Part shown: positions 7,562 through 32,811 of the stretch, in pieces | Position numbering within the stretch: the first letter of the stretch is position 1 | Layout: each line of letters opens with the position of its first letter | From: a virus | Virus record (IMG/VR): IMGVR_UViG_3300046779_002131 | Span: 1-64,000 of that record | Strand: one strand, 5' to 3' | Length of the DNA: 64,000 nt | Translations under genes and position numbers: made by a program | The notes under the pieces: model-generated | Database searches by the model: none | The model's input: only the letters and a program-made list of their open reading frames with translations | Told to the model about the DNA's origin: nothing

Positions 7562-7715
7562 CTTTGAGCCATAGCCTTTCGTGAAGATAGTGCAATACTG
7601 TCAATACAATGTTGATGGCTATAGCCGACGATAAACCAGTCCATAATGCAGTAATTATTGTGGCAATGATTCGCCAACCCACTGCTCTTGCCAATGTTCT
7701 TTTTCTTAGTTCCAT
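7533..7715 (-). CDS. small membrane protein, DUF2061-like
   Basis: RTLARAVGWRIIAT...YLHERLW with two hydrophobic segments. Confidence 0.65.
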   Translation of the reverse strand: MELRKRTLARAVGWRIIATIITALWTGLSSAIAINIVLTVLHYLHERLWLKVEWGKTNDL

Positions 7716-8584: not shown

Positions 8585-8585
8585 A

Positions 8586-8954
8586 TTAACTCTCAACAAA
8601 AGGTTTTAAATCAGGCGCTACCCATCCAAGAGGTTTTAGAACTTTACCATCTTCACGCTTACGCACCTTGCCTGTTTCTCGATCAATCTTGGCAAAGTTT
8701 GTGCTCATAACTTCTTTCCAAGCACCTTCGGCATCTGCGCCCATGCTATGGATAGCACCAATAGTAACAACAAGTATGTCAATCAGTGCATCAAGTGTTT
8801 CTACTTTATCATGGTTATTAATTGCAACACTAAGTTCATCTGCTTCTTCTTCGATTAATTTAAGATACATATTGAACTGTGTTTGATTAAATTCCTCTAC
8901 AGTCTGATCACAGGCCCGCATAAATTTTTCTTGGTCTCTAAACGGATTTGTCAT
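8586..8954 (-). CDS. MazG-like/all-alpha NTP pyrophosphohydrolase
   Basis: LIEEEADEL...DALIDILVV...SxNFAK...REDGKVLKP. Confidence 0.8.
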   Translation of the reverse strand: MTNPFRDQEKFMRACDQTVEEFNQTQFNMYLKLIEEEADELSVAINNHDKVETLDALIDILVVTIGAIHSMGADAEGAWKEVMSTNFAKIDRETGKVRKREDGKVLKPLGWVAPDLKPFVES

Positions 8955-9448
8955 TTAAGCCACCACTCTTCCCAGGGAAATACGACCCAGCTAGGATCGT
9001 TTAGTTTATTAATAGTGCGTCCAACATAGTTAACATCAACTTCTGAATTGCTTGACTCATTGTCAAACAAACAGGCCACACGAACATTGTTGCCCCAGAC
9101 ACTGTTCCAACGTTCGTCACGGGGATGACATCCACTGGGCCAATCTTGTTTAATCCAATTTAATGTATTACCAGTGTCGTTGATGTCGTCAACAATCAAA
9201 ATGCTTTTGCCGTTGAATGCATCTTCGGCTGCCCAGAGATTGCTTTCAGGATCACTGCCATCACGTAGACTTACATGCAAGGCATGCATGGGGATTGAGA
9301 GATATTGACTAATAAGATTAGCTGGTGTTAATCCACCCCGAGTGATGCCAAGAATGTATTCAGGACGCCAAGCATCACTTTGAATTTGTCTTAGAATCTC
9401 TTGTGTATAATTTTCAACGTCACGCCATGTCATGTAGATATGTTTCAT
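8951..9448 (-). CDS. type I phosphoribosyltransferase (purine PRT-like)
   Basis: GITRGGL; PRPP-binding ILIVDDINDTGNT; WVVFPWE. Confidence 0.85.
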   Translation of the reverse strand: MKHIYMTWRDVENYTQEILRQIQSDAWRPEYILGITRGGLTPANLISQYLSIPMHALHVSLRDGSDPESNLWAAEDAFNGKSILIVDDINDTGNTLNWIKQDWPSGCHPRDERWNSVWGNNVRVACLFDNESSNSEVDVNYVGRTINKLNDPSWVVFPWEEWWLK

Positions 9449-12125: not shown

Positions 12126-12403
12126 TCTTTAACTCCGAAATGATCTCGAATCTTGTCAATACAATCATCGGCACCGGCAAGATCAACTTGGTCGCATAAA
12201 AATAAACATTGCTTTACAGTTTCCTTAATGCCATCTGATTGTCCGGCGATATAACCTGCACTGAAATGTCGAGCTTCAATATCTTTTTCTAGCAGCTGAG
12301 CGAACCGTTCAATACTATTTCTGTAGATATGGCCGTTATAAGCTGAATCATTGGGTAACTCTATTCCAGCTTGTTTGGCAAGTTCTCGAATTCGTTCGTT
12401 CAT
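12122..12403 (-). CDS. MNERI-family small protein
   Basis: MNERIRELA...FAQLL...IRDHFGVKE. Confidence 0.65.
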   Translation of the reverse strand: MNERIRELAKQAGIELPNDSAYNGHIYRNSIERFAQLLEKDIEARHFSAGYIAGQSDGIKETVKQCLFLCDQVDLAGADDCIDKIRDHFGVKE

Positions 12404-12915
12404 GCAAATAAGTCCTCGTTCCATTCACGATGTCCTTCGCGGAACGCCATGTTTGATTGTGTTTCTCTTACTTCTACACGATAGCACCATAGACGTTCTG
12501 CTTCACCTGGTCCCCACATTTCAGGAATATAAACTCCGTTAACATACTTGTAAAGCATGTCAGCAAGACCTTCGCAACCAAGTCTAGGTAGTACAACAAT
12601 CTTGGCCATGTTCTTTTCTTGTAACAGTTTGAATGTCTCCAACTCTGGATCATCTTGTGCTACAATTAACGTGTGGTCAAATTGGTCTTCTAAGATCTTC
12701 TTGAGCTCTTTGAGACCGCCGTAGTCGGCAGCCCAGTTACGCACATCCAAATCGTCTGTGCCAAAGTAAAACTTCATGCTAAATGAATAGCCATGGATTA
12801 AATTACAGTGACTGTCAGCACGCCATTGTCTATACGCACATGGAAACGCATCGTGGTATTCTTTTGTACTGGTGTATTTGTAAACTCTTGTTGGGTATGT
12901 TTCTGTTAGATACAT
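12400..12915 (-). CDS. queD: 6-carboxy-5,6,7,8-tetrahydropterin synthase
   Basis: CNLIHGYS (CxxxHGH-like), FDH, GCEGLA and VRET motifs. Confidence 0.85.
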   Translation of the reverse strand: MYLTETYPTRVYKYTSTKEYHDAFPCAYRQWRADSHCNLIHGYSFSMKFYFGTDDLDVRNWAADYGGLKELKKILEDQFDHTLIVAQDDPELETFKLLQEKNMAKIVVLPRLGCEGLADMLYKYVNGVYIPEMWGPGEAERLWCYRVEVRETQSNMAFREGHREWNEDLFA

Positions 12916-16556: not shown

Positions 16557-17681
16557 TCAAATCTCTTGGTACAATACCATATGATTTTGGTTGCGTGATT
16601 GATCCAAAATGTCGTTGTAGATTTGGCATTGTGACCAAAGTTCGGAATCAAATTGGTTAAACAATACCGAATTTAGTAAATGTTCAATAGTATCTTGTTG
16701 TATTGAATCTAAATTCAAAGCCAAACATTGTTGTAGATATGTTAAAACTCGACGTCTTAGATCATCAGGCCAATTGTCTGCAGCCAAATAGTAAGGTCTA
16801 CGACATTGAAAGAATTGGTGACGGATTCCGTCACTGCCCATTTGCCCCTGCTGCTGAGAAAGCAGTTGTAAATTTCGCACATATCTCAGCAACGGTTGCA
16901 ATTGAAAAACATTGAGATTAGATATCACAGTGTTGATATCCATGCTTTGAGCATGACAAGCCAACCAATTTAAATTTGAATGGACCTGTGCCCAATCAGT
17001 ACCGTCGCGTATGATTTCAGCAGCGTATCCCACAGCATCTACACTCACAGTCCAATGTATTTGTTTGCAGTGCTTGGTTAGTTCATACCAAAAAGGATCT
17101 GTAAAACTTCCATTGGTAGTGATCAGTACCGAAAGATCAGGTAAGTTGGCATCAAGCACATGTTCTAGGATTGATCTAACTTCGGGAATGACAGTGGGTT
17201 CGCCTCCGGTGAACATCAACCTGCGCAGTTGCGACAAGTGGTTGATTATCCAATCCTTGTTTTTGACATCGGCGCTGGCGACCTTAATATCAATTACCCG
17301 TCCAAACCGACTCAATTCGGGTATCTGTTTATATTCTTGCGCAATGCCGTGACTGAATTCAGGAACACAACTACGGCATCTAAAGTTACAGATATTACTA
17401 CTGCGGTAATCAACAAAGTCTATTTCAGTGTCGTCAAAGCGTTGATTATTGTAATCACGTAGGCTGTTGGTGCGTAAACTTTCTCCCTGTGATTGTTCTT
17501 GATCAATGCAGGTTTGGCATTCCGGGGGAACTTGACCAGACAAAAAAGATTGCTGAATACGTTGCAGAGTTGGATTATTGGCCCACTGATCTAATGTTGT
17601 TACTTGTCGCGGAAATTGACAACAGGGTGCAAGACCGCTGTTGTCAACATATACATGGCGAAAAGGCAGTGGACAATACAA
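16557..17681 (-). CDS. radical SAM protein with N-terminal SPASM/twitch-like Cys cluster
   Basis: CNFRCRSC, FTGGEP and TTNG; N-terminal CPLPF..PCC..CQTC. Confidence 0.85.
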   Translation of the reverse strand: MYCPLPFRHVYVDNSGLAPCCQFPRQVTTLDQWANNPTLQRIQQSFLSGQVPPECQTCIDQEQSQGESLRTNSLRDYNNQRFDDTEIDFVDYRSSNICNFRCRSCVPEFSHGIAQEYKQIPELSRFGRVIDIKVASADVKNKDWIINHLSQLRRLMFTGGEPTVIPEVRSILEHVLDANLPDLSVLITTNGSFTDPFWYELTKHCKQIHWTVSVDAVGYAAEIIRDGTDWAQVHSNLNWLACHAQSMDINTVISNLNVFQLQPLLRYVRNLQLLSQQQGQMGSDGIRHQFFQCRRPYYLAADNWPDDLRRRVLTYLQQCLALNLDSIQQDTIEHLLNSVLFNQFDSELWSQCQIYNDILDQSRNQNHMVLYQEI

Positions 17682-18416
17682 TCAACTATGCCCCTTCATG
17701 CTTAGACAAAGATCATAAAACTCTTGTCTTAGAGCCGGATCATCTTTGAATGCACCTAGCATGATTGCAGTAGTCATATCTGACTCATGTTCACGTACAC
17801 CACGCATGGTCATGCAGTGATGTTCGGCTTTGACTACAACAGCAATATTTTCTGTTTTGGCATATTGTTTTAGAGCTTCGGCAATCTGCGTAGTCATTTC
17901 TTCTTGGATCTGTGGACGTTCGGCAATGTGATGCACAATGCGATTAAACTTACTGAGTCCAATTACTTCTTTATCAGGCACAATACCAACCCAGCATCGA
18001 CCAACAATGTTTTGAAAGTGGTGAGCACAGGTAGACCTTATACTAATAGGACCTGTTGTGTACAGGCTCTGATAGCCCATGTTGGGAAAGGCTGTGACCT
18101 TGGGCACTGATCGATAGCGGCCTGAAAACGTTTCGCGAATAAACATTTTGGCAACTCTGTTCGCTGTGTCTTGTGTGTTGTGATCGCGCATGGTATCAAT
18201 CACAAGACTCTGTAGAACTTCTTCTAGCTTGAGTGCTACTTCTGCTTGAAGTTCGTCTAGTTCACCTTCGGCGATATAATCTGCAATGTTGTCATTGCTG
18301 TGATATCTATGTTTGGCCAGTTCAAGCCTTGCTCTAATTCTTTGACTTGCAGGTTGAACTAGTTGTTCTGCAAATGATTCTGTATCGTTGTTTTCGTAAA
18401 GTTTATTGTATACCAT
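17682..18416 (-). CDS. folE: GTP cyclohydrolase I
   Basis: STCAHH, IGLSKFNR, RPQIQEEMT and HHCMTMRGV. Confidence 0.95.
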   Translation of the reverse strand: MVYNKLYENNDTESFAEQLVQPASQRIRARLELAKHRYHSNDNIADYIAEGELDELQAEVALKLEEVLQSLVIDTMRDHNTQDTANRVAKMFIRETFSGRYRSVPKVTAFPNMGYQSLYTTGPISIRSTCAHHFQNIVGRCWVGIVPDKEVIGLSKFNRIVHHIAERPQIQEEMTTQIAEALKQYAKTENIAVVVKAEHHCMTMRGVREHESDMTTAIMLGAFKDDPALRQEFYDLCLSMKGHS

Positions 18417-18454
18417 TTTTTCTCCGAGTTATAGACGTGGATGTCTATGTTTAA

Positions 18455-18483
18455 ATTATAAAGATATTTCTAGGTATTGTCAA
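18455..18483 (-). promoter_or_regulatory. consensus sigma70 promoter for folE
   Basis: TTGACA-N17-TATAAT. Confidence 0.8.
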
Positions 18484-18970
18484 CACCAGTGATTTGCAAT
18501 GTATAACGATTGACATGACCGTTGTTGACAGCTAAATGTGGAGTATCATATGTCCATGATACCCAATCTCCGGCTCTCCAATTTACAAAAGGATTACCGT
18601 CTACTTCTAAATAATGCCCGGGCTTCCAATCATCTAAAAACACAATGATTCTAACAATTTGATCGGGATCATCAATGTTGTTTCTTGATCTGTAGGTTGA
18701 ATACCGGTCACTATGCAATGGTAATATCATACCTGGCTGCAGTCTTGTGATTTGATATACCTTGTTATCAAGTTGTGCAAAATGCTGACCAAACTCTAGG
18801 AAATCGTCAAGCCCACCATAGACATCTGTTGCTATCATTTTATAGCGACGGTCGTCTTCGGGATCAACAAAGTTAAATCCGTTGTAGACGTTGGTGTGAT
18901 TTTGGTAAGAAAGTGATTCATAGTCCTGAGCTGACCATGTACATTCAATATGTCCTTGATTTATAGACAT
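18470..18970 (-). CDS. 2OG-Fe(II) dioxygenase/cupin-like protein
   Basis: LPLHSD (HxD), PHLAVN, RYTLQIT. Confidence 0.6.
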   Translation of the reverse strand: MSINQGHIECTWSAQDYESLSYQNHTNVYNGFNFVDPEDDRRYKMIATDVYGGLDDFLEFGQHFAQLDNKVYQITRLQPGMILPLHSDRYSTYRSRNNIDDPDQIVRIIVFLDDWKPGHYLEVDGNPFVNWRAGDWVSWTYDTPHLAVNNGHVNRYTLQITGVDNT

Positions 18971-19881
18971 AGTTTATTACGCCAAAAATCCACGGTCATC
19001 TTTAAACCATCTTCAAGTTTTACCTCTGGCTTCCAACCCAACACTTCGGTGATCAAGGTGTTGTCGCTGTTTAGCCAATAAATCTCGCCAGGGCGTAGAG
19101 GTTTGGTATCCCAGACTACATGCCCTTTCCACCCCACAATGTCAGCGATCATATCAACATAGTCTCGAATTTTAATTGGTTGATTGGGACCAATTGTAAA
19201 GATTCTACCGTGATTGACACGATGGGGATTGTTAATTACTGCTAACCAAGCGTCTAGCAAATCCGTGACATAGATAAAATTACGATAAGGTTCAGCATAA
19301 CCTAATCTAATTTCATTGGGATTCTTTAACATCTGAGTGATAATTTGTTCAGTCACAAAGAAATCGTTGTCCCTGCGACCATAAGCGTTGGTTTGTCTTA
19401 TGGCTGTGAATGGCAACATAAGAGACCTATGTGCGTACTCTAGATATTTTTCCACAGCATACTTGGCCACTGCATAGGGTGCATTGGGATTAGGCTGTGT
19501 GGATTCGTTAAATGCTTGCTTGACCACAGGCGTACCAAGATCAACAATATTGTCGCTGATAGGTTGCCAACCATAGACTTCCATAGTTGATGCAAATACA
19601 AAGTTTTGTAAGTTTTGGAGTTTTACAGCCGACTCAATTAAATTAACTGAACCTACATAGTTAATTTGACTAAATGTAATCTGTTCAGTAAAACTTTTTT
19701 CAACTTCAGTCCTAGCAGCTAGGTGTACAATAATTTCCGGATCAAAGGACAGCACTTCATCTTCAACTTGTTGAAAGTCCAATAGATCAGATGTCATTGA
19801 ATGTACTTCATGTTGCAGTTGCAACAAAGGTACCAAGTGAGATCCAATAAAACCCGATGCTCCAGTTACAAATATTTTCAT
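18961..19881 (-). CDS. NAD-dependent NDP-sugar epimerase/dehydratase
   Basis: TGASGFIG, HLAA and YAVAK (YxxxK). Confidence 0.9.
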   Translation of the reverse strand: MKIFVTGASGFIGSHLVPLLQLQHEVHSMTSDLLDFQQVEDEVLSFDPEIIVHLAARTEVEKSFTEQITFSQINYVGSVNLIESAVKLQNLQNFVFASTMEVYGWQPISDNIVDLGTPVVKQAFNESTQPNPNAPYAVAKYAVEKYLEYAHRSLMLPFTAIRQTNAYGRRDNDFFVTEQIITQMLKNPNEIRLGYAEPYRNFIYVTDLLDAWLAVINNPHRVNHGRIFTIGPNQPIKIRDYVDMIADIVGWKGHVVWDTKPLRPGEIYWLNSDNTLITEVLGWKPEVKLEDGLKMTVDFWRNKLCL

Positions 19882-21092
19882 TCGATTTTATTCACAGGAT
19901 ATTTTGCTTCATTGACATGGTCACGATATCTATTGTCACCACGATACCACTTGCTTGATGTAGGAACATGGTGAGAGATAATATCACAAATGCGATCCAC
20001 AGTGCCGTTGTTCCAATCCGAGATCAGACCCTGATTGTGATGAGGTTTTTGCAATAAGTTTTCTAACTTACAAAATGCATCATCTATTGACCAAGGCACA
20101 TAAAGTCGGTCGGGATCATTGGCAAAAGTTTCTGGAAAACTGCGATAAGCAGGATATAAAACATTACAACCAAGAGTATCTGCTTCTGATACAGTATTAC
20201 TGACCCAATCTTGTAGAGCGCAATTAAACAAAACGCGGCTATTGTTAAGTAAATCGTAGTAATCGTTCTTCTTGAGATTTTCATGAATAGTCAATAGACC
20301 TTGCGATGCAAATTCTCGAGCTCGTTCAACATATTGCAGATTGTTTGATCGCAATGGACCACCTTGCAGTATGGCAAATTCCACCTGACCACGATGTTGC
20401 CCCTGACGATGATACATTTCAATCAAGTCCATGAAAAAGTTGGGTTGCTTCTCTTGGTCGAACCTAGCAGCAAATACCACACGATATGGACGTTGATCAA
20501 ATGGTTTGACATTGCCGACACCACCAATGCGTTCTAGCACTTCGTCTTTGCCAAATGCTAGACCAGAAATATTATAGATAGGAGCACACCATCCAGCAAT
20601 ACGCATATGAGCAACCATTTCCTCATTTGTGGCGAGAATCCCGGTGACGAACTCATTGACCATGTGCTCATACTTCGCCATCCATTTCTCCATACCCCAT
20701 ACATGAACAAAGTCATCAGGATCAATGGACTGAGCAAGACACCTAACAAAAACACGGGGACGCTGATGAACAGGGACTTGATCAAATATGTAAGGTAAGC
20801 ATTCGATACCGGGTTGAAACATGTCTTCAAAGTAGATGACATCTTGTTCATTGAGTTCTCCGTTTTTGTGCATTTGCACAAGATTCATTAATTGGCTCAT
20901 GCCAAAGTAACTGCGACCATGTGCATCAAGAACCTGCCCTACTGAAATAGCCTGTGAGTTGTCAATGGTAGTACCAGGCACATAGACAACATCATATCCT
21001 CGACGTTCAAACACACGACGATTCCATTCAGTCAACTGCAATGTATAGCGGGATTCATAACTTTCTAATCCCATGTAGTAGAGTTTTCTCAT
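19878..21092 (-). CDS. GT-B (GT4-like) glycosyltransferase
   Basis: VVFAARFDQEKQP; C-terminal sugar-nucleotide motif DWVSNTVSEA (D/E-x7-E); YPAYRSFPE. Confidence 0.7.
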   Translation of the reverse strand: MRKLYYMGLESYESRYTLQLTEWNRRVFERRGYDVVYVPGTTIDNSQAISVGQVLDAHGRSYFGMSQLMNLVQMHKNGELNEQDVIYFEDMFQPGIECLPYIFDQVPVHQRPRVFVRCLAQSIDPDDFVHVWGMEKWMAKYEHMVNEFVTGILATNEEMVAHMRIAGWCAPIYNISGLAFGKDEVLERIGGVGNVKPFDQRPYRVVFAARFDQEKQPNFFMDLIEMYHRQGQHRGQVEFAILQGGPLRSNNLQYVERAREFASQGLLTIHENLKKNDYYDLLNNSRVLFNCALQDWVSNTVSEADTLGCNVLYPAYRSFPETFANDPDRLYVPWSIDDAFCKLENLLQKPHHNQGLISDWNNGTVDRICDIISHHVPTSSKWYRGDNRYRDHVNEAKYPVNKIE

Positions 21093-21475
21093 TAATCTCC
21101 TTTGCGGCGGAATCCTTCAATTGCGCCTTTGAAATTATACGGATACAGATCCTTGGCAGATGTTGGTGGCCATTGTTTTGGATCGGATGAAGTTTGATTC
21201 TGTGCCAGTCCGTATTTTAAATTACTAATTTGGCTTTCTATATCTGATAATTTGCGATTTACCACATGCACATCTTCATACATTCTACGCAAAGGACCGT
21301 GACTTGCTCGTCTTTGTCCTTCGTGGTCACCAGTATCAGTTAAGATAACCATCATCATTAATTGGCGTAGTGCGTTTTTGACTCTAGGATCATTACTGAC
21401 CATCGCTTCATCAAACATTTCAATAAAGCGTTCTAAGTCATAATCTGCAGCGTCTTTTTCACGCATGGCGCTCAT
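21092..21475 (-). CDS. hypothetical protein
   Basis: ORF fits packing. Confidence 0.65.
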   Translation of the reverse strand: MSAMREKDAADYDLERFIEMFDEAMVSNDPRVKNALRQLMMMVILTDTGDHEGQRRASHGPLRRMYEDVHVVNRKLSDIESQISNLKYGLAQNQTSSDPKQWPPTSAKDLYPYNFKGAIEGFRRKGD

Positions 21476-21696
21476 TATATTGACCTTCCGAATCTACGCC
21501 CATCTTCGACCCACATATCTTTGACAGTTTTACCCTGTTGATATTTGTTAAACTGTTGGAACGCATAGCTCTTCCAGTTGTAAAGATCGCTTTCGTTAAA
21601 GCGATATCCGTGATCTCGACAGAACTCTAGAAAGTTTTCCAAGTCGTCAAGGATTTGTGAAGTTTTGGCATTGGGCTGAATATGTGGCTTAGCCAT
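21475..21696 (-). CDS. hypothetical protein
   Basis: SD AGGAG. Confidence 0.7.
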   Translation of the reverse strand: MAKPHIQPNAKTSQILDDLENFLEFCRDHGYRFNESDLYNWKSYAFQQFNKYQQGKTVKDMWVEDGRRFGRSI

Positions 21697-21718
21697 TTTA
21701 ATCTCCTAGTTATTGAGT

Positions 21719-22645
21719 TTAATTGTTAGGGTCGTGAGCAATACCACGCCACTGTTTTATTTTTACTTCTTCTGTTTCTGGAGTATCTTCACTCCAAGTG
21801 CTAATCCATCTTGTACCAGTCCAACGTAATGTAGTGGTATCTGTAAATGGCCATTTTTTCTTGTTGTTACCTTGTATTTCATAAATGCCTTCTCTTACTG
21901 GATTCATTGTTTTAGGAAACCACTCGGTCATTTCATACACACAATCATCACTGTCTCGATATCGTTCCCACCGACCGTCCTGCATTGATCCGGCTACGTA
22001 AAAAGCAAATTCTGAACTCTTGCCAGTTGTGTCTCCTCCGCAGTTGTCAATGTCAATGCCATCATAACTTGCACCAAAAATAATTTCGTTACCATCAACT
22101 TCTTCAACAAGCAATGTTAGTTTAGAGATATCAAAAGGAGCGGTAAGTTCAATTTCACCTTCAAAGAAAGTGCCTTTTTCCCCAGAACTACCAATGAATA
22201 CCACAGTGCCGAGAGATTGTTCATCAATATAAGATTCGTCACCAAACTCCCATTCCGGACTATCATCATACCCAGTGCAGTCGTCAAGACTTTTTTGCCA
22301 AACACTTACGTCGTTCTCATCATCAATATTTAGAGTTCCATGATTACGGTCAACACCATTTGTATGTGCTATGTTGTCACATTCGTACCAGCTACCAGGA
22401 GGGAATGGCCACATCTCTTCAGGGATATTGTGTTCTTCAGCGTAGTCGCTATCCCAGGCAAAGTCACTTACTGATAGTCTACGATAACGGAAGTAATCGT
22501 AGATTTTACGATCCACTGTGCCCATAACATGTTCGCCGCCATACCCCCAAATACTAATCTTATAAGTTCGCGGTGTAAATTTCAAAGTCGCAATGAGTTT
22601 TTCTTGATCAGCTATAAGCTCTGCAGACTTTTTAACTCGGGGCAT
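21719..22645 (-). CDS. acidic hypothetical protein
   Basis: 308-aa ORF with SD AAGGAG. Confidence 0.75.
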   Translation of the reverse strand: MPRVKKSAELIADQEKLIATLKFTPRTYKISIWGYGGEHVMGTVDRKIYDYFRYRRLSVSDFAWDSDYAEEHNIPEEMWPFPPGSWYECDNIAHTNGVDRNHGTLNIDDENDVSVWQKSLDDCTGYDDSPEWEFGDESYIDEQSLGTVVFIGSSGEKGTFFEGEIELTAPFDISKLTLLVEEVDGNEIIFGASYDGIDIDNCGGDTTGKSSEFAFYVAGSMQDGRWERYRDSDDCVYEMTEWFPKTMNPVREGIYEIQGNNKKKWPFTDTTTLRWTGTRWISTWSEDTPETEEVKIKQWRGIAHDPNN

Positions 22646-22654
22646 AAGAGCTCC

Positions 22655-23083
22655 TTAGATTTTTATTGATTGATAAGGTTGATGTGTGTTGTACGTAATA
22701 GTACAGCCATTTTCGCCATCTTCACTTACGCCAATTATAACATTACGTCCAGGAAATTTACTAGAGATTTGGACATATAAGTCATCTGCGATCATTTCAC
22801 AGCTCTTGTAGTTTAAAACGAGTATCGAATTATTATACAACCCTTCGAGCCAGCGTTTGAACTGGATGAATTCGATGTCCCTGTCATTGTGGAACACATC
22901 GATTGACACCCGGAAGTGGAAAATATGACGATGCTCATTAGCAAGAAAACTAACATCTGCAAGTTTTGGATCCTCCGCTGCTGCCGGATATTTATGAATA
23001 CCTTCTTTGCGGAAAGTAACCCAAATTTGTCGTTGAGCTCGTTCCATGATTCTTTCTGTTGTAGCACGTTCGTCTTGATTCAC
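22655..23083 (-). CDS. dpdL: QueD-like T-fold protein, DpdL-like (candidate 7-carboxy-7-deazaguanine decarboxylase)
   Basis: EGIH, FLANEHRHIF (LxxxHRHxF), SCEMIA and EDGENG; lacks the CxxxHGH of QueD; a true queD exists elsewhere in the window. Confidence 0.65.
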   Translation of the reverse strand: MNQDERATTERIMERAQRQIWVTFRKEGIHKYPAAAEDPKLADVSFLANEHRHIFHFRVSIDVFHNDRDIEFIQFKRWLEGLYNNSILVLNYKSCEMIADDLYVQISSKFPGRNVIIGVSEDGENGCTITYNTHQPYQSIKI

Positions 23084-23559: not shown

Positions 23560-23867
23560 TATAGTTGTCGCAAACTTTCAATACTGATAATTTTACCTAA
23601 TTCTGTAGTAAAGTCTTGATCTGATGTGATTATATAGGTCTTGTTGTCGCTGCGATCAAGTTTTTTGTCGTAGTGCTTGAATGTAACTAGAGAACCACCA
23701 ATAACCTTTTTTACACTGATGCGTAACCCATCACTGAGATCATGAGGATCATCTTCTATTAATCGAGCTTCTGATGTAATCACAGAACCAACGTCCAACA
23801 TGTGTTTGTTGTCCCAAGCCCATTTACTTTTATGTAAAAACCATTTGTCAAACCATTTCATTACCAT
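23559..23867 (-). CDS. hypothetical protein
   Basis: ORF fits packing. Confidence 0.65.
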   Translation of the reverse strand: MVMKWFDKWFLHKSKWAWDNKHMLDVGSVITSEARLIEDDPHDLSDGLRISVKKVIGGSLVTFKHYDKKLDRSDNKTYIITSDQDFTTELGKIISIESLRQL

Positions 23868-24367
23868 ACCTCGTCATCGTTGTAAGCGTCCCAACCTGTG
23901 AATGCATGTTGAGATTTTAAATCGTGGATTCTGTGGCACCACACGCCAAAATTTGTTGCATCAAAGTCCTTGTCATCCAACTTCAATACAGCATTGTAAC
24001 CAAGTTGATCAATATAAGGCAACTTAGCAGAAATCATAGGAATGAATCTACGATATTCAGTGAGTCCTGATTCCAACAAGCCTTCTACTTCGGAAATATC
24101 AAGATCCAAAGTGACCCAGAAGTCTCGTTTCAAAAAGTATTTGGCCATACCTTCGAAGTATCCCCAGGTTTCGGCTCCGGCACTGCGAGGGAAACTATGA
24201 TTGGCACCTAGGTAAACATGCCGTGATCCCGAACGTTCGGCAGTTCGTTCTATGTCATTGACATTTTGCACACCTATTACAAATACTGTGCGCTCTCGAT
24301 ATTGTGCTGTGCGTTCTACTTCAATGCCAGTGAAGATAGTGGCCTTTTCATGTCCTTGTCTATTCAT
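23861..24367 (-). CDS. hypothetical protein in the deazaguanine gene region
   Basis: FTGIEVE...HVYLGANHSF...KLDDKDFDATNFGVW. Confidence 0.7.
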   Translation of the reverse strand: MNRQGHEKATIFTGIEVERTAQYRERTVFVIGVQNVNDIERTAERSGSRHVYLGANHSFPRSAGAETWGYFEGMAKYFLKRDFWVTLDLDISEVEGLLESGLTEYRRFIPMISAKLPYIDQLGYNAVLKLDDKDFDATNFGVWCHRIHDLKSQHAFTGWDAYNDDEVW

Positions 24368-25617
24368 AGATTATTTAGATTTCCCTCGCTGAGGTCGGTA
24401 ATTTTATCCCAGTCCTCTTGAATGATGTTGTAGAATTCAGGAAACGTTTTGGCAAAATTTTGATGCCGATACAGATCCTGCCGTTTGGTCCATATAATAA
24501 ACTGACGCCATGCTAATGGATTGTGTGATTGTACTTGTAAAAAACCTCGAACTTCAGGAGATTGAATATGTTCCAACATTTGTAATTTTACATGATCTGG
24601 TGCTGCGTGTACAGCCAAATAGGTAGGATGCGCCACCATATTGATATAATGTGCTCCTACAGTAGTTTGAGCCCAGTCAATTATCTCATCAATATAGTAT
24701 GCATTGAGTAAGGTACAGCATGGTGATACCACATGCGTAACTTCGGCAGATATTTGATTTTTTAAATCAAGCAATGCCTGGACATTCTGTTCGACTTCGA
24801 GCCAATTACCCGGATATCTAAGATAGTGAAATTTGTCACCAGTATGGTCAATGCTCAAGCTGAACTCAATTCGCCGAAACTTATCCCAGACTCTTTGATG
24901 ACGGGGATTGATGGCCTGTGTACAATTGGTGCTGTAAAAAATTGTAACGTTTTTGCTGCGTCCGGTTGATACCAAATGCTCAAGAAAATCTAAATGTGTG
25001 AGATTCAGCAATGGTTCGCCACCATAAAACTCTAGTTTAGTAATGTTAGCGTCAATTTCATCAAATTTTGAATAATCAGTGTGCCGGGGTGCTAGGCGTG
25101 CAACAAATCTGTTGCCAGGGTCACCAAAAATATTAATGGTACCGTACTTTTCAGTATAATGTAATCCTTCTCGATGATAACTGTTAGAATCGTAACCACC
25201 GCAGGTTCTACAAGCAAGATTGCATACATTACTGACTTTGGTGCTTATCAGTTGTGGACCTTGTTGCCATTGGCCTGTGAGTATAAGATCGCTATAGGCT
25301 TCTGGATACCACTCTAGCATACGCTGCCTAAGACTGGATTTACCAGCTACTTCTTCGTTGGTACATTTAACACAAGGTTCGGGAATTTGATTGCTGGCAA
25401 ATTGTTTGCGCATTTGATTGTATTCGTCACTGCGCCAACGCTCCAATGGAGTTCGATCTTCCATCAACCATTCAGTAACACCGTAAGCACAAGGACTTGT
25501 TTTACCATAGGTAGTTTGCATAGTACTGATAAACGGAGCCACACAAAAGTTCTTGGGCCTTTGTTTTGGTATTATTTTTTGTATGTTATCTAGATTATTG
25601 CTTACGGAGTGATTCAA
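24364..25617 (-). CDS. radical SAM protein with N-terminal SPASM/twitch-like region
   Basis: CNLACRTC, FYGGEPLL and STN. Confidence 0.85.
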   Translation of the reverse strand: MNHSVSNNLDNIQKIIPKQRPKNFCVAPFISTMQTTYGKTSPCAYGVTEWLMEDRTPLERWRSDEYNQMRKQFASNQIPEPCVKCTNEEVAGKSSLRQRMLEWYPEAYSDLILTGQWQQGPQLISTKVSNVCNLACRTCGGYDSNSYHREGLHYTEKYGTINIFGDPGNRFVARLAPRHTDYSKFDEIDANITKLEFYGGEPLLNLTHLDFLEHLVSTGRSKNVTIFYSTNCTQAINPRHQRVWDKFRRIEFSLSIDHTGDKFHYLRYPGNWLEVEQNVQALLDLKNQISAEVTHVVSPCCTLLNAYYIDEIIDWAQTTVGAHYINMVAHPTYLAVHAAPDHVKLQMLEHIQSPEVRGFLQVQSHNPLAWRQFIIWTKRQDLYRHQNFAKTFPEFYNIIQEDWDKITDLSEGNLNNL

Positions 25618-25754: not shown

Positions 25755-27296
25755 TCAATCGGATATTCCTCTTTCAAGATCATCAAGTTTATCTTCATCT
25801 AATTCCTCTTCCTCGGTGTCTGTGTTTTCAAATGTAAAATATTTGTTAAACATTGTGTTGGCATTGTTGGCACGTCGACCGGTATATCCCCGAGTACCGA
25901 TAATCTGCTCCCATAATCTTTCATGTCGGTCAATCAAATCTAAACTTTGATCACGATCGCGCAATGCAAATATTTGATCCACAATGTCTCGCACTGCGAT
26001 ACGATCAAACCGTTCATTGATCAACATTGATGGCACCACGCCTGAATCGTAGGCTCGGTTGGCACGTTGTACTGCTTCAATGTGCATCCAAACATTATGC
26101 CCCATTAGCAATGCATAGGAGAAACTGTCCCATGATGTTTTGCCCTCTTTACCAATTTTATTGAGCATACCTGGAGCGTACACACAAACGTCAGAAATTT
26201 TCATTCTTGCAGTGATAGGCGAATCTTCAAACTTCTTGTGAATGCCATCTTGTGTAACTGCATCACGAAAACTGCGTGAATCTGTAGCATACTTTTTGTT
26301 GTCTGCTGTGGGCTCCATGAAGTAGTTGAAGCGTCCACGATCTTCAATACCAATTGAGTGATACAACTGTCCATTGGCAGTGGCCAAGAACGGTGATGCA
26401 CAATCAAAACTAACGGTAAAATTGGGGTTGTGATACCGACGTACTGCTCGCATAATGTCCGTGAGTAACAATGCCCATTCCAGGCGTGACGTGCCCAAGA
26501 AGTGCATCCAATCGTGAATACCAGGTTCAAGTAAACCGTCGTGTATGATATTGACAATTCTACGCAACACAAGATGAGCATCACACATGTTCTGTCCACC
26601 CATGCCCCAACCGTTGAAATGACGTCCGGGATATTTTTTTGGATCGCAATACTGCTTCATTAAGTCATACCAACGATCGGCTTCGGTGTGATTGGCACCT
26701 TGTAAAACATTCAAGAACTTAGTACCACCATTGTCAACACCACGACGATGCTGAATGAAGTATTCATTGTTGTAGTGTGTGGCTTTTACTGCATCGTCGT
26801 AGTCTCTAATACCAGTTTTTTCAGTGGCTCCGGGTACGTTAGCAGTCCATGTGGGAATATCTAGGGTCATGCCATAGTCGGCCATGCCATCTAACCATTT
26901 CAATGCAGCATCACGTTTCTTTTGTGCTCGTGGGCAGTTGGGATCTTTCCAGTCACCTTCCCACACACCCTTGGCAATTTGGAATCCACCTGAGTCACAC
27001 AGCAATGTAGTATGTTGACCCCGGTTACGCATCATATCTTCTCTGGGATCTGCTTTGGTGAGATCTAAGTTAGCATGACCTGCTGAATACAGTGCCCAGC
27101 GATAGGGAAACAATCCTGCTTGATCATTGAAGATGTTTAGCATTTCCATGTCAGGAAGGCCAGCTGGCATACGTTGGGCATCAACATAGGGTTCAAAACG
27201 TTGACGACCAATGTATGTACTGTAAAAGCTTGATACCGCAGGTAAGAACACAGCGTAATCTTTTTGTGCGGCAGTTAGATCATGTTGTTCTGTCAT
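25755..27296 (-). CDS. TGT-fold guanine transglycosylase, DpdA-like (probably DNA-acting)
   Basis: DSGGFQ, MTLDIP, VLQG, WGMGG, HFLG and SFDCASP TGT motifs; no obvious CxCxxC zinc site of bacterial tRNA TGT. Confidence 0.75.
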   Translation of the reverse strand: MTEQHDLTAAQKDYAVFLPAVSSFYSTYIGRQRFEPYVDAQRMPAGLPDMEMLNIFNDQAGLFPYRWALYSAGHANLDLTKADPREDMMRNRGQHTTLLCDSGGFQIAKGVWEGDWKDPNCPRAQKKRDAALKWLDGMADYGMTLDIPTWTANVPGATEKTGIRDYDDAVKATHYNNEYFIQHRRGVDNGGTKFLNVLQGANHTEADRWYDLMKQYCDPKKYPGRHFNGWGMGGQNMCDAHLVLRRIVNIIHDGLLEPGIHDWMHFLGTSRLEWALLLTDIMRAVRRYHNPNFTVSFDCASPFLATANGQLYHSIGIEDRGRFNYFMEPTADNKKYATDSRSFRDAVTQDGIHKKFEDSPITARMKISDVCVYAPGMLNKIGKEGKTSWDSFSYALLMGHNVWMHIEAVQRANRAYDSGVVPSMLINERFDRIAVRDIVDQIFALRDRDQSLDLIDRHERLWEQIIGTRGYTGRRANNANTMFNKYFTFENTDTEEEELDEDKLDDLERGISD

Positions 27297-28084
27297 TCAA
27301 TTCCTAGATCTTTTCTTATTTTTGTTGCAGATATTGATGTTATGTTATCATCGAATGTTTCTTGTTCTATGGTGTAACCAACATCGCGACCGTATGTTAT
27401 ATTAACAATATTAGGCACAACTTGCAACTCGTACTGACCTTGATATAGCGGATCAAGATCTCTACGGATAAACTTTTTGACCTTGTCAATCTCGAACGGA
27501 TTAGTGCCTTGCCAGCCCTGGCAATCTCTAATCATTATACAAACCTGACCAGTTTTGGCAATGGCACGTTCAAACAAGGCACGATGCCCTTCATGCCAGG
27601 GTTGCCACCGACCTAACATTTGTACTGTGGGCTTTTGCCAATCAAATCTAGGTCTGCGACGATTGTCTAGGATATGATCAGCAACGAAATCTGCCCACTT
27701 CTCACCATTTTGTTCTGTGATTCTAAAATCATAAACTGTAGGTTCGTCAAACATAGCATTGGTGTCAGCATAACGACCTTCGCGAATAGTATCTACCCAG
27801 ATAGTCCAATCTGCTTTATAGTTGTTACGCATTTCTGGCAAGGGTGCAACAAAGTCTGCAATTGCATAATCGTTGGTAGTTTTATCAGCAAGTTCTCGCA
27901 TACGACGACTTTGACGTATGCGACCTTCATAACTAAAATCCCAGTCATTATACTCTTTGCGAACTTCGTCGGCATTGAACCAGACAACTGTGCGTCCTTC
28001 TTGCCAAAGTCGCTCGCGCAGTCGTTCAGCTAGATATGTTTTGCCTGCGCCCGGCAAGCCCATGATTAGTATTCTAGCTGGCAT
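27293..28084 (-). CDS. APS kinase (CysC)-like domain fused to a cytidylyltransferase-like (HxGH) domain
   Basis: MGLPGAGKT P-loop, NADEVR, DFSYEGRIRQ; C-terminal GRWQPWHEGH and ISATKIR. Confidence 0.75.
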   Translation of the reverse strand: MPARILIMGLPGAGKTYLAERLRERLWQEGRTVVWFNADEVRKEYNDWDFSYEGRIRQSRRMRELADKTTNDYAIADFVAPLPEMRNNYKADWTIWVDTIREGRYADTNAMFDEPTVYDFRITEQNGEKWADFVADHILDNRRRPRFDWQKPTVQMLGRWQPWHEGHRALFERAIAKTGQVCIMIRDCQGWQGTNPFEIDKVKKFIRRDLDPLYQGQYELQVVPNIVNITYGRDVGYTIEQETFDDNITSISATKIRKDLGIE

Positions 28085-28433
28085 CGTTATGCACTTCCTG
28101 ACGAACAAGTTCAAGCATGATCTCAAACTTTTCATGTAGGTCTTTGAGACCAGGATGTTTGTCCATGAGCCGTTGTAGATTTCTTTCTTCAGACCTTTTT
28201 TCTTTGGCCCAATCCAATAACTCTACAGCTTCTGATGATAGACCTACATTGGCATGATTTTGACAAATCTGATGCCAATGCGAACCGTCGTAGACTTCTA
28301 GATACTGACCCGCGGTGTTAAATCGCACATCGCCTACACCCAGGGCACCGTGCTGATGATTAAGGTAAGTAGGCGGCGGATTACCTCCGCTGACCATTAT
28401 ATAATTAGTTCCTGATGTTAATGATTTGATCAT
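28074..28433 (-). CDS. hypothetical protein
   Basis: ORF; LEVYDGSHW motif. Confidence 0.65.
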   Translation of the reverse strand: MIKSLTSGTNYIMVSGGNPPPTYLNHQHGALGVGDVRFNTAGQYLEVYDGSHWHQICQNHANVGLSSEAVELLDWAKEKRSEERNLQRLMDKHPGLKDLHEKFEIMLELVRQEVHNDAS

Positions 28434-29203: not shown

Positions 29204-30148
29204 CTACTTTGGCATAATTTTTGCCAGGCTTTGACCACCCCGCAATGTAGTCAGTTCACCAGGTTTTGCTAGTTCGTACCAGCAAAGTTGATCTCGCGCA
29301 TCATAGGTATATCGATGCTCAAAGCCCAGCATCGTGGCAAGATTTAGAACCATCTCACCTGGAGTGTAACAGGCGTAGTTGTTCTCGCAAAGTGCAACAG
29401 GATGAGCATTGTCACAATTGTTGATTGTGAATATAAAGATGCCACCGGGTCTAAGTTTGTTTAAAATTTCTGTGAAGTAATGTCGCATGGCCTCCAAAGG
29501 CCTGAAGTTAAAATAGTTGTATGCAAAAATTAATCCAAATTGTCCGTTGGGTAGAAATGGCATCAAAGGTTCAGTTTCGCTTTCTTTGATGACATAAGGC
29601 CTAATATGCCTACGATATTTTTCATTGAATCGATCAAGTGTGGGTTCTAACAATTCATAGAATTGATCAACAATGTACAGTGGACTTCCGGCAACTAAAT
29701 TGTTGACAAATTCTTCATTGCCGGGTCTGATACACAACACTGGATAACGCCAATCAGCCCAGGTTTTAACTCTAGCCCACAAAGCTTCGCGATCTTCGTC
29801 GGTACCAGGTATTAATCGTCGTTCTAAAATATACTGAGCAGTCTCATGCTGCATCTCGTTAGTATACCACCGATAGCTGCGTTCAAAGTATGGTGGTTGC
29901 ATTTGCTCAATAAGAACACTGACCTCATTGGCCACTGTGTCTAAATGATTTTCAAGCGCAGCCAGACTACTATGAACATTATTGATAGTATGCTGTATAT
30001 CAATTTCAAACTTATTACGAATGTTGACTTCTTTGCGAACCGAACGTATTAAAAAATCAAGATGATTGTCCACAGACAGTCGATATTGATTGCTTGCACG
30101 AAGCTCATCAATTTGATTTTTATAACGTACTATGTCGCTTAGTTTCAT
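29204..30148 (-). CDS. coiled-coil plus degenerate methyltransferase-like domain
   Basis: FGLIFAYNYF...LRPGGIFIFT resembles class I MTase motifs. Confidence 0.5.
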   Translation of the reverse strand: MKLSDIVRYKNQIDELRASNQYRLSVDNHLDFLIRSVRKEVNIRNKFEIDIQHTINNVHSSLAALENHLDTVANEVSVLIEQMQPPYFERSYRWYTNEMQHETAQYILERRLIPGTDEDREALWARVKTWADWRYPVLCIRPGNEEFVNNLVAGSPLYIVDQFYELLEPTLDRFNEKYRRHIRPYVIKESETEPLMPFLPNGQFGLIFAYNYFNFRPLEAMRHYFTEILNKLRPGGIFIFTINNCDNAHPVALCENNYACYTPGEMVLNLATMLGFEHRYTYDARDQLCWYELAKPGELTTLRGGQSLAKIMPK

Positions 30149-32811
30149 TCAAATGTAAAAAAGTTTTGCAATGTGCTTTCGATATTTGTAGCTGATTCAA
30201 GATCCCAGTCCAGTACACCTAGTAGATTATCAACCTTAGCATCTACTACTGTAGCTTCCATCTCCGAATCATCAAACGGCAAATCTTTGAACCATTGCGG
30301 CAAATGCAATTCGTCAGTGGGATATCCAACACTGGTCAGCCCTAGAGGATTGTTGCGCAATTTACAAACAATAGTTTTCATCCCGTCGACAATGGCCATG
30401 CTGTAGTTGTCGCTGTTCATGCGTTTGAGATTGTTCCAATTCATGGCCGCACGTACATGACCTGGCATGTTGGCTTTGCCCTTGCGTTCTTCTTCTTTGG
30501 TAAACTTGGTTAGATTGTTTACACGTTTGGGAGTGCCTTTTTCCCAAGCCGGACGTTCTTTGAATTCGTATTTAAATTGTTTGATCTTTTCTACTATGTG
30601 ATCTCGTTCAGCACCAGTGAGTACGTCGTTGAGAACATCACTGAGAAATTCTTGTATGACTTTGGGCGTGTCTGATCTTTTGAGATCAAGTCCCATGGCC
30701 TTGACTTTGCCTGGTTTTCCTTTGACATCAATACGTTTGTTTTCCTTGTCAAAGTATAAAACTGCATAGCGTTTCTTGGTGATAAACAAGCCCTTGCTTG
30801 CAACAATTTCTCGACCGCCGCGTATCACTGAGCCCATCTCTCTAGGAACATGAAATGCCTGTTCCATGAAACCTGGGAATGAATCGTTTACTTGGTCAGC
30901 AATAGAGTTATACAGCGCAATGCAGGTCTCTTTACTCCATTCCATGCGACCTTCAGCGACCTCTTTATGTAATACAGGCCAGGCCGAGAAGTAGCACGAG
31001 TCCGTATCACCATAAATGATGGAGTCTCCCACATGATCATAATTTCCTGTTAGACATTCATTTACATACGCATCCATATGTTTGGCAATGGAGCGTCCAG
31101 TAAGCGTGGTTGATTGACCAATACGTTTATCAAAGAACCTACAGCCAGGATTAAGAATAGCACCATACAAACTGTTAAGATTAATCTTTTTAACCAACTG
31201 GCGTTTGTCCCAGTATTCAAATTGCACATTATCTACACCTTCAAATTCTCGGGCCTTGGCCTGCATTTCTTTACGCTCAGCATACCAACGTTTGAGCAAT
31301 CCTGGAACCACACCTTCTCGTTCGTAAGTAAAAATAGTGCCATTGGCTGATAACATCCAGGGCTGCCGACTGTCAAATATCAAACGCCAAACTTCAGCGG
31401 CACTATGTACCGACTCTTCGCCGTTTTCCCAGTCAATGATAACTTCAGTGCCTCGTTGTTGTTCCATCACCGCAGTGTACTCTAATGTAGCAAACAATCC
31501 TTCCCATGCCGCAGCAAAACTCATACCCGAATTCATACGTTCGTGTATGAGTCTATCAGTCATGTGCGGTCTAAGTTGTCCGATGATGGTTTCCGGTGCC
31601 ATGTTAAGAGCGCGGATCGCTGAGGGATAGAGCGAGTTGATGTCAATTGAACCGATCCATTCGTGAAGCCCTTTTTTGGGATAAGCAACATAGGCACCTG
31701 CGGCTTGTGTATCTTCATCTGTGAGTCTCTCTCTACGGTTAGGTACTACCAAGCCACGTTCATGCGCTTCGTTGATAATGGCCTGTTCAGTCACTGCCAC
31801 AGCACCCATTGTGGTTTGCAGCAAAACTGTGTTTTCGTGAGCCAGTGTATTGGCTAGATCCAGGAACTTGAGTTTTTTGTCCAGGGAAGCCAACCCGTTG
31901 ACGTCTTGACGGTTATACTCGATAAACTTTTTAAAATCTTGATTATAGAGTTGATCTAGTGTGCCTTCGTATTTGGTTTTACCTTCGAGTTCTTCGTATT
32001 CAAGAATTGAATCAAGACTATAGCTGTGACGTTCTTCGTATGTGTATTTGCGATACAGTTGCATATAGTCCATATGCACACGACCTATGAGATCATAAGT
32101 TTGTGCTTCGGCACCAAAACGTTCAAAGGTTCTCTGTTTGGGAAACTGTCCCCAAAGACAAAATCTACGTGTGTCATCTTTGCTAAGAGCACGTACCACA
32201 CGATTTACGGTATAAGGAATATCATAGCCTTCGGAGTTCCAACCCGACAATACGTCCACATCATCAATCAAATCCAAGAACATTTCCAACATTTCGGATT
32301 CGGATTCAAACAAGAAAGTATTGGGGAAATCTGCAACAAGTTCCTGGGCAGTCTGCATGCTGAGACTGCGCGGCGGCACTGCTAGTGTTACCAATTGATC
32401 CAGCCAATTCAAATACACCGAAATAGCAGTAATAGGATTAAACGGATCTTCGGGCCGACTATAACCTTTTTCGGGATCAAAGTCTACTTCAATATCGAAA
32501 AATGCTGCGTGTAGTTTTGGGGCATCTTGTCCTTTGAAATTTTCTTCTAGGCAGCGAAATACCGGATTGATATCTGACTCATAAAATCGCTTGCCGTTGC
32601 GTATCCGTAGTTCTTTGCGGAATTCCTTGTTACTGCGTGATGAAAATCGGGCAACCGGTGTACCATAGATACTTTGGAATTTGCCTCGGGGGTCATCATA
32701 GTAGAACACATAGTTTGCTGGAAACTCCTGATAGTGTCGTTTACCACCTCTACGTTCTACAATGTGAATTCGATCGTGATCACGATCAAACAATGCATCA
32801 ACATAACTCAT
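30145..32811 (-). CDS. family B DNA polymerase (T4 gp43-like)
   Basis: Exonuclease FFDIEVD, GWNSEGYD and YNRQD; polymerase SIDINSLYPS, KINLNSLYG, YGDTDS and KKRY; no intron or intein. Confidence 0.97.
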   Translation of the reverse strand: MSYVDALFDRDHDRIHIVERRGGKRHYQEFPANYVFYYDDPRGKFQSIYGTPVARFSSRSNKEFRKELRIRNGKRFYESDINPVFRCLEENFKGQDAPKLHAAFFDIEVDFDPEKGYSRPEDPFNPITAISVYLNWLDQLVTLAVPPRSLSMQTAQELVADFPNTFLFESESEMLEMFLDLIDDVDVLSGWNSEGYDIPYTVNRVVRALSKDDTRRFCLWGQFPKQRTFERFGAEAQTYDLIGRVHMDYMQLYRKYTYEERHSYSLDSILEYEELEGKTKYEGTLDQLYNQDFKKFIEYNRQDVNGLASLDKKLKFLDLANTLAHENTVLLQTTMGAVAVTEQAIINEAHERGLVVPNRRERLTDEDTQAAGAYVAYPKKGLHEWIGSIDINSLYPSAIRALNMAPETIIGQLRPHMTDRLIHERMNSGMSFAAAWEGLFATLEYTAVMEQQRGTEVIIDWENGEESVHSAAEVWRLIFDSRQPWMLSANGTIFTYEREGVVPGLLKRWYAERKEMQAKAREFEGVDNVQFEYWDKRQLVKKINLNSLYGAILNPGCRFFDKRIGQSTTLTGRSIAKHMDAYVNECLTGNYDHVGDSIIYGDTDSCYFSAWPVLHKEVAEGRMEWSKETCIALYNSIADQVNDSFPGFMEQAFHVPREMGSVIRGGREIVASKGLFITKKRYAVLYFDKENKRIDVKGKPGKVKAMGLDLKRSDTPKVIQEFLSDVLNDVLTGAERDHIVEKIKQFKYEFKERPAWEKGTPKRVNNLTKFTKEEERKGKANMPGHVRAAMNWNNLKRMNSDNYSMAIVDGMKTIVCKLRNNPLGLTSVGYPTDELHLPQWFKDLPFDDSEMEATVVDAKVDNLLGVLDWDLESATNIESTLQNFFTFE

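Follow-up and report, generated by a model that had tools for sequence, protein, structure and literature searches.

A 404-residue glycosyltransferase (GT) encoded in the viral sequence IMGVR_UViG_3300046779_002131 would be an integral part of a queC-less, DpdL-type operon for 7-deazaguanine modification of DNA, where its role would be to place a sugar, tailored by the phage, on an acceptor derived from a deazaguanine and destined for DNA. We give these two propositions jointly a fair rather than a high probability, on the basis of sequence comparisons and structural models. The window, i.e., the whole stretch of DNA analysed here, consists of the first 64 kb (64,000 nucleotides) of a 97.5-kb IMG/VR viral fragment whose completeness is estimated at 28% by CheckV. 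The complete relatives, which have terminal repeats, measure 347–353 kb, and the source is therefore a jumbo phage. At 30145–32811 the window encodes a family-B DNA polymerase that shares about 50% identity with its counterpart in Sinorhizobium phage Phosso.

The sequence-only reading of this DNA had described the enzyme as a GT-B, and its structural model bears this out. The AlphaFold2 (AF2) model, with a predicted local distance difference test score (pLDDT) of 93.8, consists of two Rossmann-like domains and an interdomain cleft. Its fold neighbours over about 320–340 residues (Z 25–27) are all retaining GT4 enzymes: MshA (Z 27.2, 341 residues aligned, root-mean-square deviation 3.8), BshA, PglH/WlaC and sucrose-phosphate synthase (Z 26–27), followed at Z 23–25 by SenB, LmbT and tetrahydrobiopterin glucosyltransferase. 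Among 46 diverse members of the family, R210, E214 and K215 are invariant and E303, the first glutamate of the EX7E motif, is nearly so; the stretch from R210 to K215 aligns with GRLDHNKNP, the donor-binding motif of WlaC. Since the donor-site residues are conserved and aligned to the WlaC motif, the protein looks catalytically competent, and it looks active as a nucleoside diphosphate (NDP)-sugar glycosyltransferase.

The matches of the window GT to Pfam are limited to weak ones with Glyco_trans_1 (E 0.007, 17 bits against a cut-off of 25–27), and a few of its relatives reach the cut-off (e.g., P0161, PF00534, 27.7 bits). The family is isolated, comprising only 801 clusters at 50% identity out of 1.84 billion proteins, and abundant in metagenomes, where more than 8000 clusters at 90% identity are 77–87% identical to the window protein. 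By sequence, it is a distinct family within the GT4-like fold, and the viral and metagenome data indicate that it is apparently phage-borne. The pattern search with this family used an alignment of 8 rows, the 46-row alignment being too diverse. A search for fused forms longer than 708 aa found none, and distant members used as single queries (P0272 and P0137 in viral_contigs, P0131 in genome_contigs) gave no match.

The GT gene travels with dpdL, which encodes a paralog of QueD. In a tblastn search of 50,697 phage records (INPHARED), the GT was found in 15, namely in BUCT-ZZ01, the PA5oct group, ACP17 and the Xanthomonas phages BUDD and X1, and all 15 carry dpdL within about 2 kb. A profile of the family adds Phosso and BCSR5, in both of which the GT lies beside dpdL. 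The order of the genes varies: dpdA-GT-dpdL-queE in ACP17, GT-dpdA-dpdL-queE in BUDD, dpdA-GT-dpdL in PA5oct, dpdA-dpdL-GT in BUCT-ZZ01, and dpdL-GT-x-folE in Phosso, where x is an intervening gene. The surroundings of the GT were also sampled in viral contigs, 80 of them close and 80 mid-distance. Of the close loci, 75 contain dpdL; of the mid-distance ones, 74 have it immediately upstream of the GT, and the other six contigs end less than 0.5 kb upstream of the GT.

The GT had been tied to deazaguanine genes from the window alone; this tie stands, since no homolog was found to occur independently of them among the phage records, except that it does not extend to the most distant subgroup of the family (about 30% identity), on whose short contigs no dpdL is seen. 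At least eight distinct lineages of phages, differing in gene order and in host, have the GT beside dpdL, and its family was not seen apart from deazaguanine genes in the 50,697 records. Both findings make it improbable that the enzyme acts elsewhere, whether on a different base of DNA, on a protein of the virion or the host or on a glycan of the host envelope, with an operon position that reflects co-regulation only. Such a target would be in keeping with the great diversity of GT4 acceptors, with the many auxiliary sugar genes that jumbo phages often carry, and with the distant members that have no visible dpdL.

All the genes of interest in the window are on the minus strand. In the order of transcription, those of the module and of the associated pathway are the following:

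25755–27296, minus strand: DpdA-like DNA-guanine transglycosylase of the PA5oct EST35_0316 type, 513 aa (tRNA-guanine transglycosylase (TGT) fold, motifs)
23861–24367, minus strand: conserved 168-aa protein accompanying the module (in 69 of 80 close loci; no family match)
22655–23083, minus strand: DpdL-like T-fold protein, QueD paralog and proposed 7-carboxy-7-deazaguanine (CDG) decarboxylase, 142 aa (LANEHRHIF; phrog_17812, E 1e-37)
21719–22645, minus strand: 308-aa protein, lineage-specific insert (14 of 80 close loci; no informative match)
21475–21696, minus strand: conserved protein of 73 aa, placed between dpdL and the GT (in 78 of the 80 close loci; 1-nt overlap with the next gene)
21092–21475, minus strand: 127-aa protein, lineage-specific insert (5 of 80 close loci)
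19878–21092, minus strand: GT-B glycosyltransferase, GT4-like, of a phage-specific family, 404 aa (AF2 model, conserved residues)
18961–19881, minus strand: NDP-sugar epimerase/dehydratase of the extended short-chain dehydrogenase/reductase (SDR) type, 306 aa (PF01370, E 1e-41)
18470–18970, minus strand: cupin-like 166-aa protein, possible oxygenase of the Asp/Arg-hydroxylase type, optional (HxD...H; no Pfam match)
17682–18416, minus strand: FolE, GTP cyclohydrolase I (PF01227, E 1.5e-48)
12400–12915, minus strand: protein of the QueD/6-pyruvoyltetrahydropterin synthase (PTPS) family (PF01242, E 3e-15; 53% identity to ACP17 QueD)
8951–9448, minus strand: purine phosphoribosyltransferase (PF00156, E 3e-15; weak NCBIfam matches to xanthine and hypoxanthine-guanine phosphoribosyltransferases)
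8586–8954, minus strand: NTP pyrophosphohydrolase, MazG/PRA-PH-like (PF01503, E 4e-12)
7715–8599, minus strand: QueE, CDG synthase (46% identity to BUCT-ZZ01 QueE; sub-threshold NCBIfam QueE matches)

The eight open reading frames (ORFs) that had been read as a DpdL-like gene, three hypothetical genes, the 404-aa GT-B, an epimerase/dehydratase, an oxygenase-like gene and folE were all recovered, in this order and on this strand. From the radical S-adenosylmethionine (SAM) gene at 24364–25617 down to the gene of the 166-aa protein, neighbours overlap by 1–10 nt or are spaced by 9–22 nt, and this tight spacing looks like that of a single operon. The arrangement is not due to chance, since it recurs in the 80 close and 80 mid-distance viral contigs. 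Family searches with the 308-, 73- and 127-aa proteins gave no match, and the 168-aa protein is 30% identical to ASD50402 of ACP17, whose gene is located between folE and dpdA.

DpdL is defined by the signature LxxxHRHxF as a paralog of QueD and is a proposed CDG decarboxylase (Cui, Hutinet et al. 2023, PMC10516641). The motif LANEHRHIF of the window protein matches this signature, in place of the CxxxHGH of QueD. The protein is 35% identical to CGPG_00067 of phage phiST and clusters with it and with ACP17 ASD50405; homologs of DpdL are present in 29 phage records, phiST DpdL among them. In two GT-less phages, the Vibrio phage Bakedbeans (L089 7260–8411, 383 aa) and the Chryseobacterium phage MA9V-3 (L092 7431–8312, 293 aa), DpdL makes up the C-terminal part of a longer protein, the N-terminal extension of which has no match in Pfam. 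As for the QueD of the window (12400–12915), it has the motif CNLIHGY where CxxxHGH has been published, i.e., a tyrosine replaces the second zinc-binding histidine, despite its 53% identity to ACP17 QueD.

The 513-aa protein was identified by a fold search alone. It has no match to Pfam PF01702, and the profile of its family gave none against PDB sequences or Pfam. However, the motifs DSGGFQ, HFLGTS and SFDCASP are invariant, and the 50 best Foldseek matches of its AF2 model (pLDDT 77) are all tRNA-guanine transglycosylases (E 2e-7). The gene is found in 68 of the 80 close loci. The protein groups with PA5oct EST35_0316; its hhalign probability with the BUDD/ACP17 type of DpdA is only 43%, and it is not of the phiST DpdA3 type. 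Judged by its model, it is the DpdA-like enzyme of the pathway.

Searches for queC in the 97.5-kb record, two complete relatives, PA5oct and ACP17 gave no match. The pathway therefore ends at CDG or 7-deazaguanine, as it does in phiST. The phosphoribosyltransferase and the MazG/PRA-PH-like pyrophosphohydrolase (8586–9448, minus strand) abut queE. Homologs of the former occur in the modules of BUCT-ZZ01 and PA5oct, in 7 of 17 GT-bearing loci compared to 0 of 6 GT-less ones; it may serve to salvage the guanine freed by transglycosylation or to synthesize deazapurine nucleotides.

In line with the phage-made sugar of the sequence-only reading, sugar-tailoring genes are embedded beside the GT. The SDR gene overlaps the GT stop by 4 nt; an SDR gene comes after the GT in the BUCT-like architecture too, which is unrelated. 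The protein has the motifs GASGFIG, STMEVYG and YAVAK, and weak NCBIfam matches to the LegB, RmlB and GalE models. In 69 close loci, the distance from the GT to folE varies between 646 and 6353 bp. The commonest cassette (57 loci) encodes a GalE-like SDR and a short DegT-like protein, the window type (a different SDR and the 166-aa protein) is found in 12–14 loci, and other loci encode a true 4,6-dehydratase, a sugar C-methyltransferase, a B12-radical SAM protein, 2-oxoglutarate (2OG) oxygenases, an acyltransferase, a major facilitator superfamily (MFS) transporter or an AMP-binding enzyme. The transporter, an unusual gene for a phage, and the AMP-binding (adenylate-forming) enzyme lie after folE and a hexapeptide acyltransferase in a complete relative of 352 kb (L020 18214–20899). 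To judge from these gene contents, the sugar-tailoring cassette that occupies the slot from the GT to folE is hypervariable, and the combination of a constant transferase with variable tailoring agrees with diversifying selection acting on a decoration.

The window and its close relatives (L002–L081) differ in this slot and in folE: the GT, DpdL and QueD of the window are 68–78% identical to theirs (about 78% for the GT), unlike the products of the SDR and folE genes (17682–19881), for which the identity is only 31% and 41%, respectively. This divergence suggests replacement of the cassette through recombination.

The hydroxylation step that the sequence-only reading had envisaged as possibly preceding sugar transfer has to be given up as a necessary one, while the transfer of a sugar tied to the deazaguanine pathway stands. 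The gene of the 166-aa protein is present in only 14–22 of the 80 close loci and was not found at the loci of the other GT-bearing lineages, and there is no profile link between the protein and the 2OG-FeII_Oxy_3 oxygenases of the relatives. An obligatory hydroxylase was rejected on these grounds. The HxD...H pattern of the protein and its Atlas neighbour clusters, in which 19–21% of the members carry PF05118 (Asp/Arg hydroxylase), make an Asp/Arg-hydroxylase-like cupin only a lead.

The hypervariable cassette also bears on the fate of the sugar. The GT and DpdL might cooperate on an intermediate that bears a sugar, such as a carboxy-deazaguanine in activated or solubilised form, with the sugar removed again or never entering DNA, so that the final base in DNA would be plain 2'-deoxy-7-deazaguanosine (dDG) or another non-glycosylated deazaguanine; as a variant, the GT would be a non-catalytic partner of DpdA. 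The very tight adjacency of dpdL and the GT agrees with this, and so does the observation that dpdL and dpdA of ACP17, expressed without the GT, gave no dDG, which fits a GT needed for the DpdA substrate whatever the end product. However, there would be little point in a hypervariable tailoring cassette if the sugar were discarded, phiST needs no GT to make dDG, and conservation of the donor-site residues speaks against a protein with a structural role only. A transient sugar is therefore unlikely, even slightly more so than a target outside the pathway.

Among the known systems closest to the module is the dDG system of phiST (FolE, QueD, QueE, DpdL and DpdA3; PMC10516641). Like the window, phiST lacks queC and has a DpdL with LxxxHRHxF, a nearby MazG-like gene and a transglycosylase of the TGT superfamily; unlike the window, which has the GT, the SDR and a 513-aa TGT-fold protein of another type, it has no GT, no sugar genes and a short DpdA3 (259 aa). 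Its DNA carries dDG as well as 2'-deoxy-7-carboxy-7-deazaguanosine (PMC10516641).

This difference recurs among the 14 DpdL lineages that were compared. The 8 lineages with the GT never have a DpdA3 of the phiST type, whereas the 6 lineages without the GT (phiST, MA9V-3, RHph_I1_18, Bakedbeans, D479 and Ahp1) all have it. Searches of whole genomes with profiles, run with positive controls, found the GT without DpdA3 in 9 genomes, DpdA3 without the GT in 6, and both together in 0 of 15. Instead, the phages with the GT have larger proteins of the TGT fold, which belong to the window/PA5oct type, the BUDD/ACP17/BUCT type (DSGGLQ), the BCSR5 type or the L122 type. In the tree of DpdL, the GT state and the DpdA3 state are intermixed, and there are at least 3 changes of state on supported branches. 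This mutual exclusivity is a weak hint that the GT alters the substrate that DpdA must handle, which would place the GT before insertion.

The pathway that these genes would encode can be outlined as follows. FolE, QueD and QueE would convert GTP into CDG, which DpdL would then process, by decarboxylation to 7-deazaguanine according to the published proposal. The GT would move a sugar onto a deazaguanine-derived acceptor. The sugar would be supplied or tailored by the adjoining SDR in the window, and relatives would add aminotransferase-like, dehydratase, C-methyltransferase or acyltransferase activities. The TGT-fold, DpdA-like enzyme would swap genomic guanine for the modified base, and the virion DNA would finally contain a sugar-bearing 7-deazaguanine, with a sugar that varies among related phages. 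The folds, the motifs, the synteny and the co-occurrence of the genes are observations; the acceptor, the order of the steps and the product are inferred from them.

A precedent for such a transfer is HuiG (KALB_4073), from the huimycin cluster of actinomycetes. In both cases a GT lies beside homologs of folE, queD and queE; the huimycin cluster contains folE, queD, queE and queC, and HuiG transfers N-acetylglucosamine onto the exocyclic 2-amino group of a free 7-deazapurine (PMC7439116). The GTs of huimycin-family clusters carry PF13439, the N-terminal domain of GT4 enzymes, and dapiramicin-type clusters add RmlB/RmlD-like SDRs for a deoxysugar (bioRxiv 10.64898/2026.04.15.718813). HuiG and the phage GT are likened through their shared Pfam clan only, and huimycin and dapiramicin differ from the product envisaged here in being free, O6-methylated secondary metabolites made from preQ0, with QueC and with neither a transglycosylase nor DNA involved.

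Provided that the GT does glycosylate an acceptor of deazaguanine origin that ends in DNA, transfer to the free base before insertion has, by analogy with HuiG, about even chances or slightly better, and transfer on DNA after insertion about even chances or slightly worse. The huimycin precedent and the change of DpdA type slightly favour the free base as the acceptor. A HuiG-type product keeps N9 free, and thus a transglycosylase could in principle insert it. The fully specified version, in which free 7-deazaguanine would be glycosylated, possibly on the exocyclic 2-amino group, a non-DpdA3 transglycosylase would insert the resulting sugar-purine and the cassette would vary the sugar, is tentative and, as a whole, rather unlikely.

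The glucosyltransferases of T4 decorate 5-hydroxymethylcytosine in DNA. Like the window GT, the alpha- and beta-glucosyltransferases are phage GT-B enzymes that would share with it a modified DNA base as acceptor, and b-gt adjoins gene 42, a gene of base synthesis. Unlike the window GT, they act on a pyrimidine hydroxymethyl group and have no accompanying sugar-tailoring genes. The analogy with T4 drawn previously finds no backing in the fold comparison, which returned GT4 enzymes; the T4 enzymes are not among the top 50 structural matches of the GT model, a mere absence that is no evidence of a difference.

A pteridine glycoside would be a different outcome for the same enzyme families. BGluT, the UDP-glucose:tetrahydrobiopterin glucosyltransferase of cyanobacteria (PDB 5ZES, 9V0L), is a GT4-type GT-B as well, with Z 23–25 compared to 27 for the best match, and it acts on a small 2-amino-4-oxo heterocycle made from GTP by FolE and a T-fold enzyme. 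By a BGluT-like route, FolE and a PTPS-family enzyme would make a tetrahydropterin, the SDR would reduce it and the GT4 enzyme would glycosylate its side chain, yielding a metabolite rather than a DNA base. All four enzyme families are present, the tetrahydrobiopterin glucosyltransferases fall inside the plateau of best fold matches, and BUCT-ZZ01, the cultured phage with the closest homolog, infects Synechococcus elongatus PCC 7942, the source of the solved Synechococcus BGluT structures according to the titles of the entries. Yet QueE and the TGT-fold transglycosylase, specific to deazaguanine and to insertion into nucleic acid, are conserved with the GT, and BGluT is not linked to enzymes of these kinds; DpdL lacks the catalytic cysteine of PTPS and QueD; the SDR is of the extended, sugar-nucleotide type and not a classical sepiapterin reductase; the hosts are mostly proteobacteria; and the profile of the GT family gives no match to BGluT at the sequence level. 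This route is thus very improbable.

Several points weigh against a sugar that the GT places on a deazaguanine destined for DNA. Besides the short contigs of the most distant GT subgroup, one of its loci, L096, has a true QueD 6 kb from the GT and no visible dpdL. The decarboxylase activity of DpdL is an unproven proposal (PMC10516641). The sugar product of the GT-bearing phages is predicted from their genes alone. 7-Deazaguanine has no hydroxyl group to which a sugar could be attached. The acidity of the acceptor domain does not separate DNA from small-molecule acceptors, and the adjacency of b-gt and gene 42 in T4 means that a position next to base-synthesis genes fits a DNA-acting GT too. 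Finally, the exclusivity of the GT and DpdA3 amounts to only 3 supported independent contrasts (sign test, p 0.25). An acidic acceptor domain had been considered as a sign of a small-molecule acceptor and was dropped, the T4 alpha-glucosyltransferase (pI 6.1) being acidic too.

The distant relatives also have a radical SAM/SPASM gene downstream of the GT, directly after it in L096 and one ORF later in L095.

To our knowledge, glycosylation of phage DNA occurs on pyrimidines (derivatives of 5-hydroxymethylcytosine and 5-hydroxymethyluracil) and the known 7-deazaguanine bases of DNA carry no sugar. The earlier statement that no sugar-bearing 7-deazaguanine was known from phage DNA agrees with our literature search, which found no report of one in DNA. 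A sugar on a 7-deazaguanine derivative within nucleic acid does occur in the glycosylated queuosines of eukaryotic tRNA (mannosyl- and galactosyl-queuosine). Unlike the product predicted here, these belong to RNA and carry the sugar on the cyclopentenediol of queuosine, and a queC-less set of enzymes is unable to make queuosine. A sugar-bearing deazaguanine in DNA, if confirmed, would be a new class of DNA hypermodification. If the free base were glycosylated before insertion, the product would be the first purine in any DNA to carry a sugar, and DNA glycosylation would for the first time precede the entry of the base into the polymer. The pathway would also supply enzymes for site-independent glycosylation of purines in DNA.

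The module is abundant in metagenomes, including complete jumbo-phage genomes of 347–436 kb. Since it is also present in the cultured phages PA5oct, ACP17, BUCT-ZZ01, BUDD, X1, BCSR5 and Phosso, the prediction can be tested at once by mass spectrometry. Two of these phages have been studied. The production of ACP17 DpdL and DpdA in E. coli gave no dDG, and the authors suspected that an enzyme was missing (PMC10516641). The GT gene of ACP17 lies between its dpdL and dpdA, and a role of the GT in the pathway, if confirmed, would explain this failure. The DNA of PA5oct, which has the GT, resists cutting at G-containing restriction sites and is sensed by END nucleases; it contains a modified G whose structure was not identified (PMC12191111). 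The pathway proposed here, if correct, could identify this modified G.

A megablast of the region against the phage records gave no match. In the window, the neighbour of the DpdA-like gene (27293–28135, minus strand) encodes a 280-aa protein whose N-terminal domain is of the APS-kinase/P-loop kinase type and which also has a weak stretch resembling cytidylyltransferases. Only 3 of the 80 close loci contain homologs, and the protein may be an enzyme of sugar or nucleotide activation. Besides queE, the window contains three radical SAM genes, all on the minus strand. Two of them (16557–17681 and 24364–25617) flank the module and encode twitch-domain proteins (NF033640, E 1e-70 and 1e-75), for which reason they were rejected as candidates for QueE; their homologs, at about 31–32% identity, are found in only 17–19 of the 80 close loci. 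The third (33403–34431) encodes a SPASM protein. The Synechococcus phage BUCT-ZZ01 carries, between folE and the DpdA-like gene, a second, unrelated GT of 447 aa (L001 9010–10353; Glyco_trans_1_4, E 3e-5).

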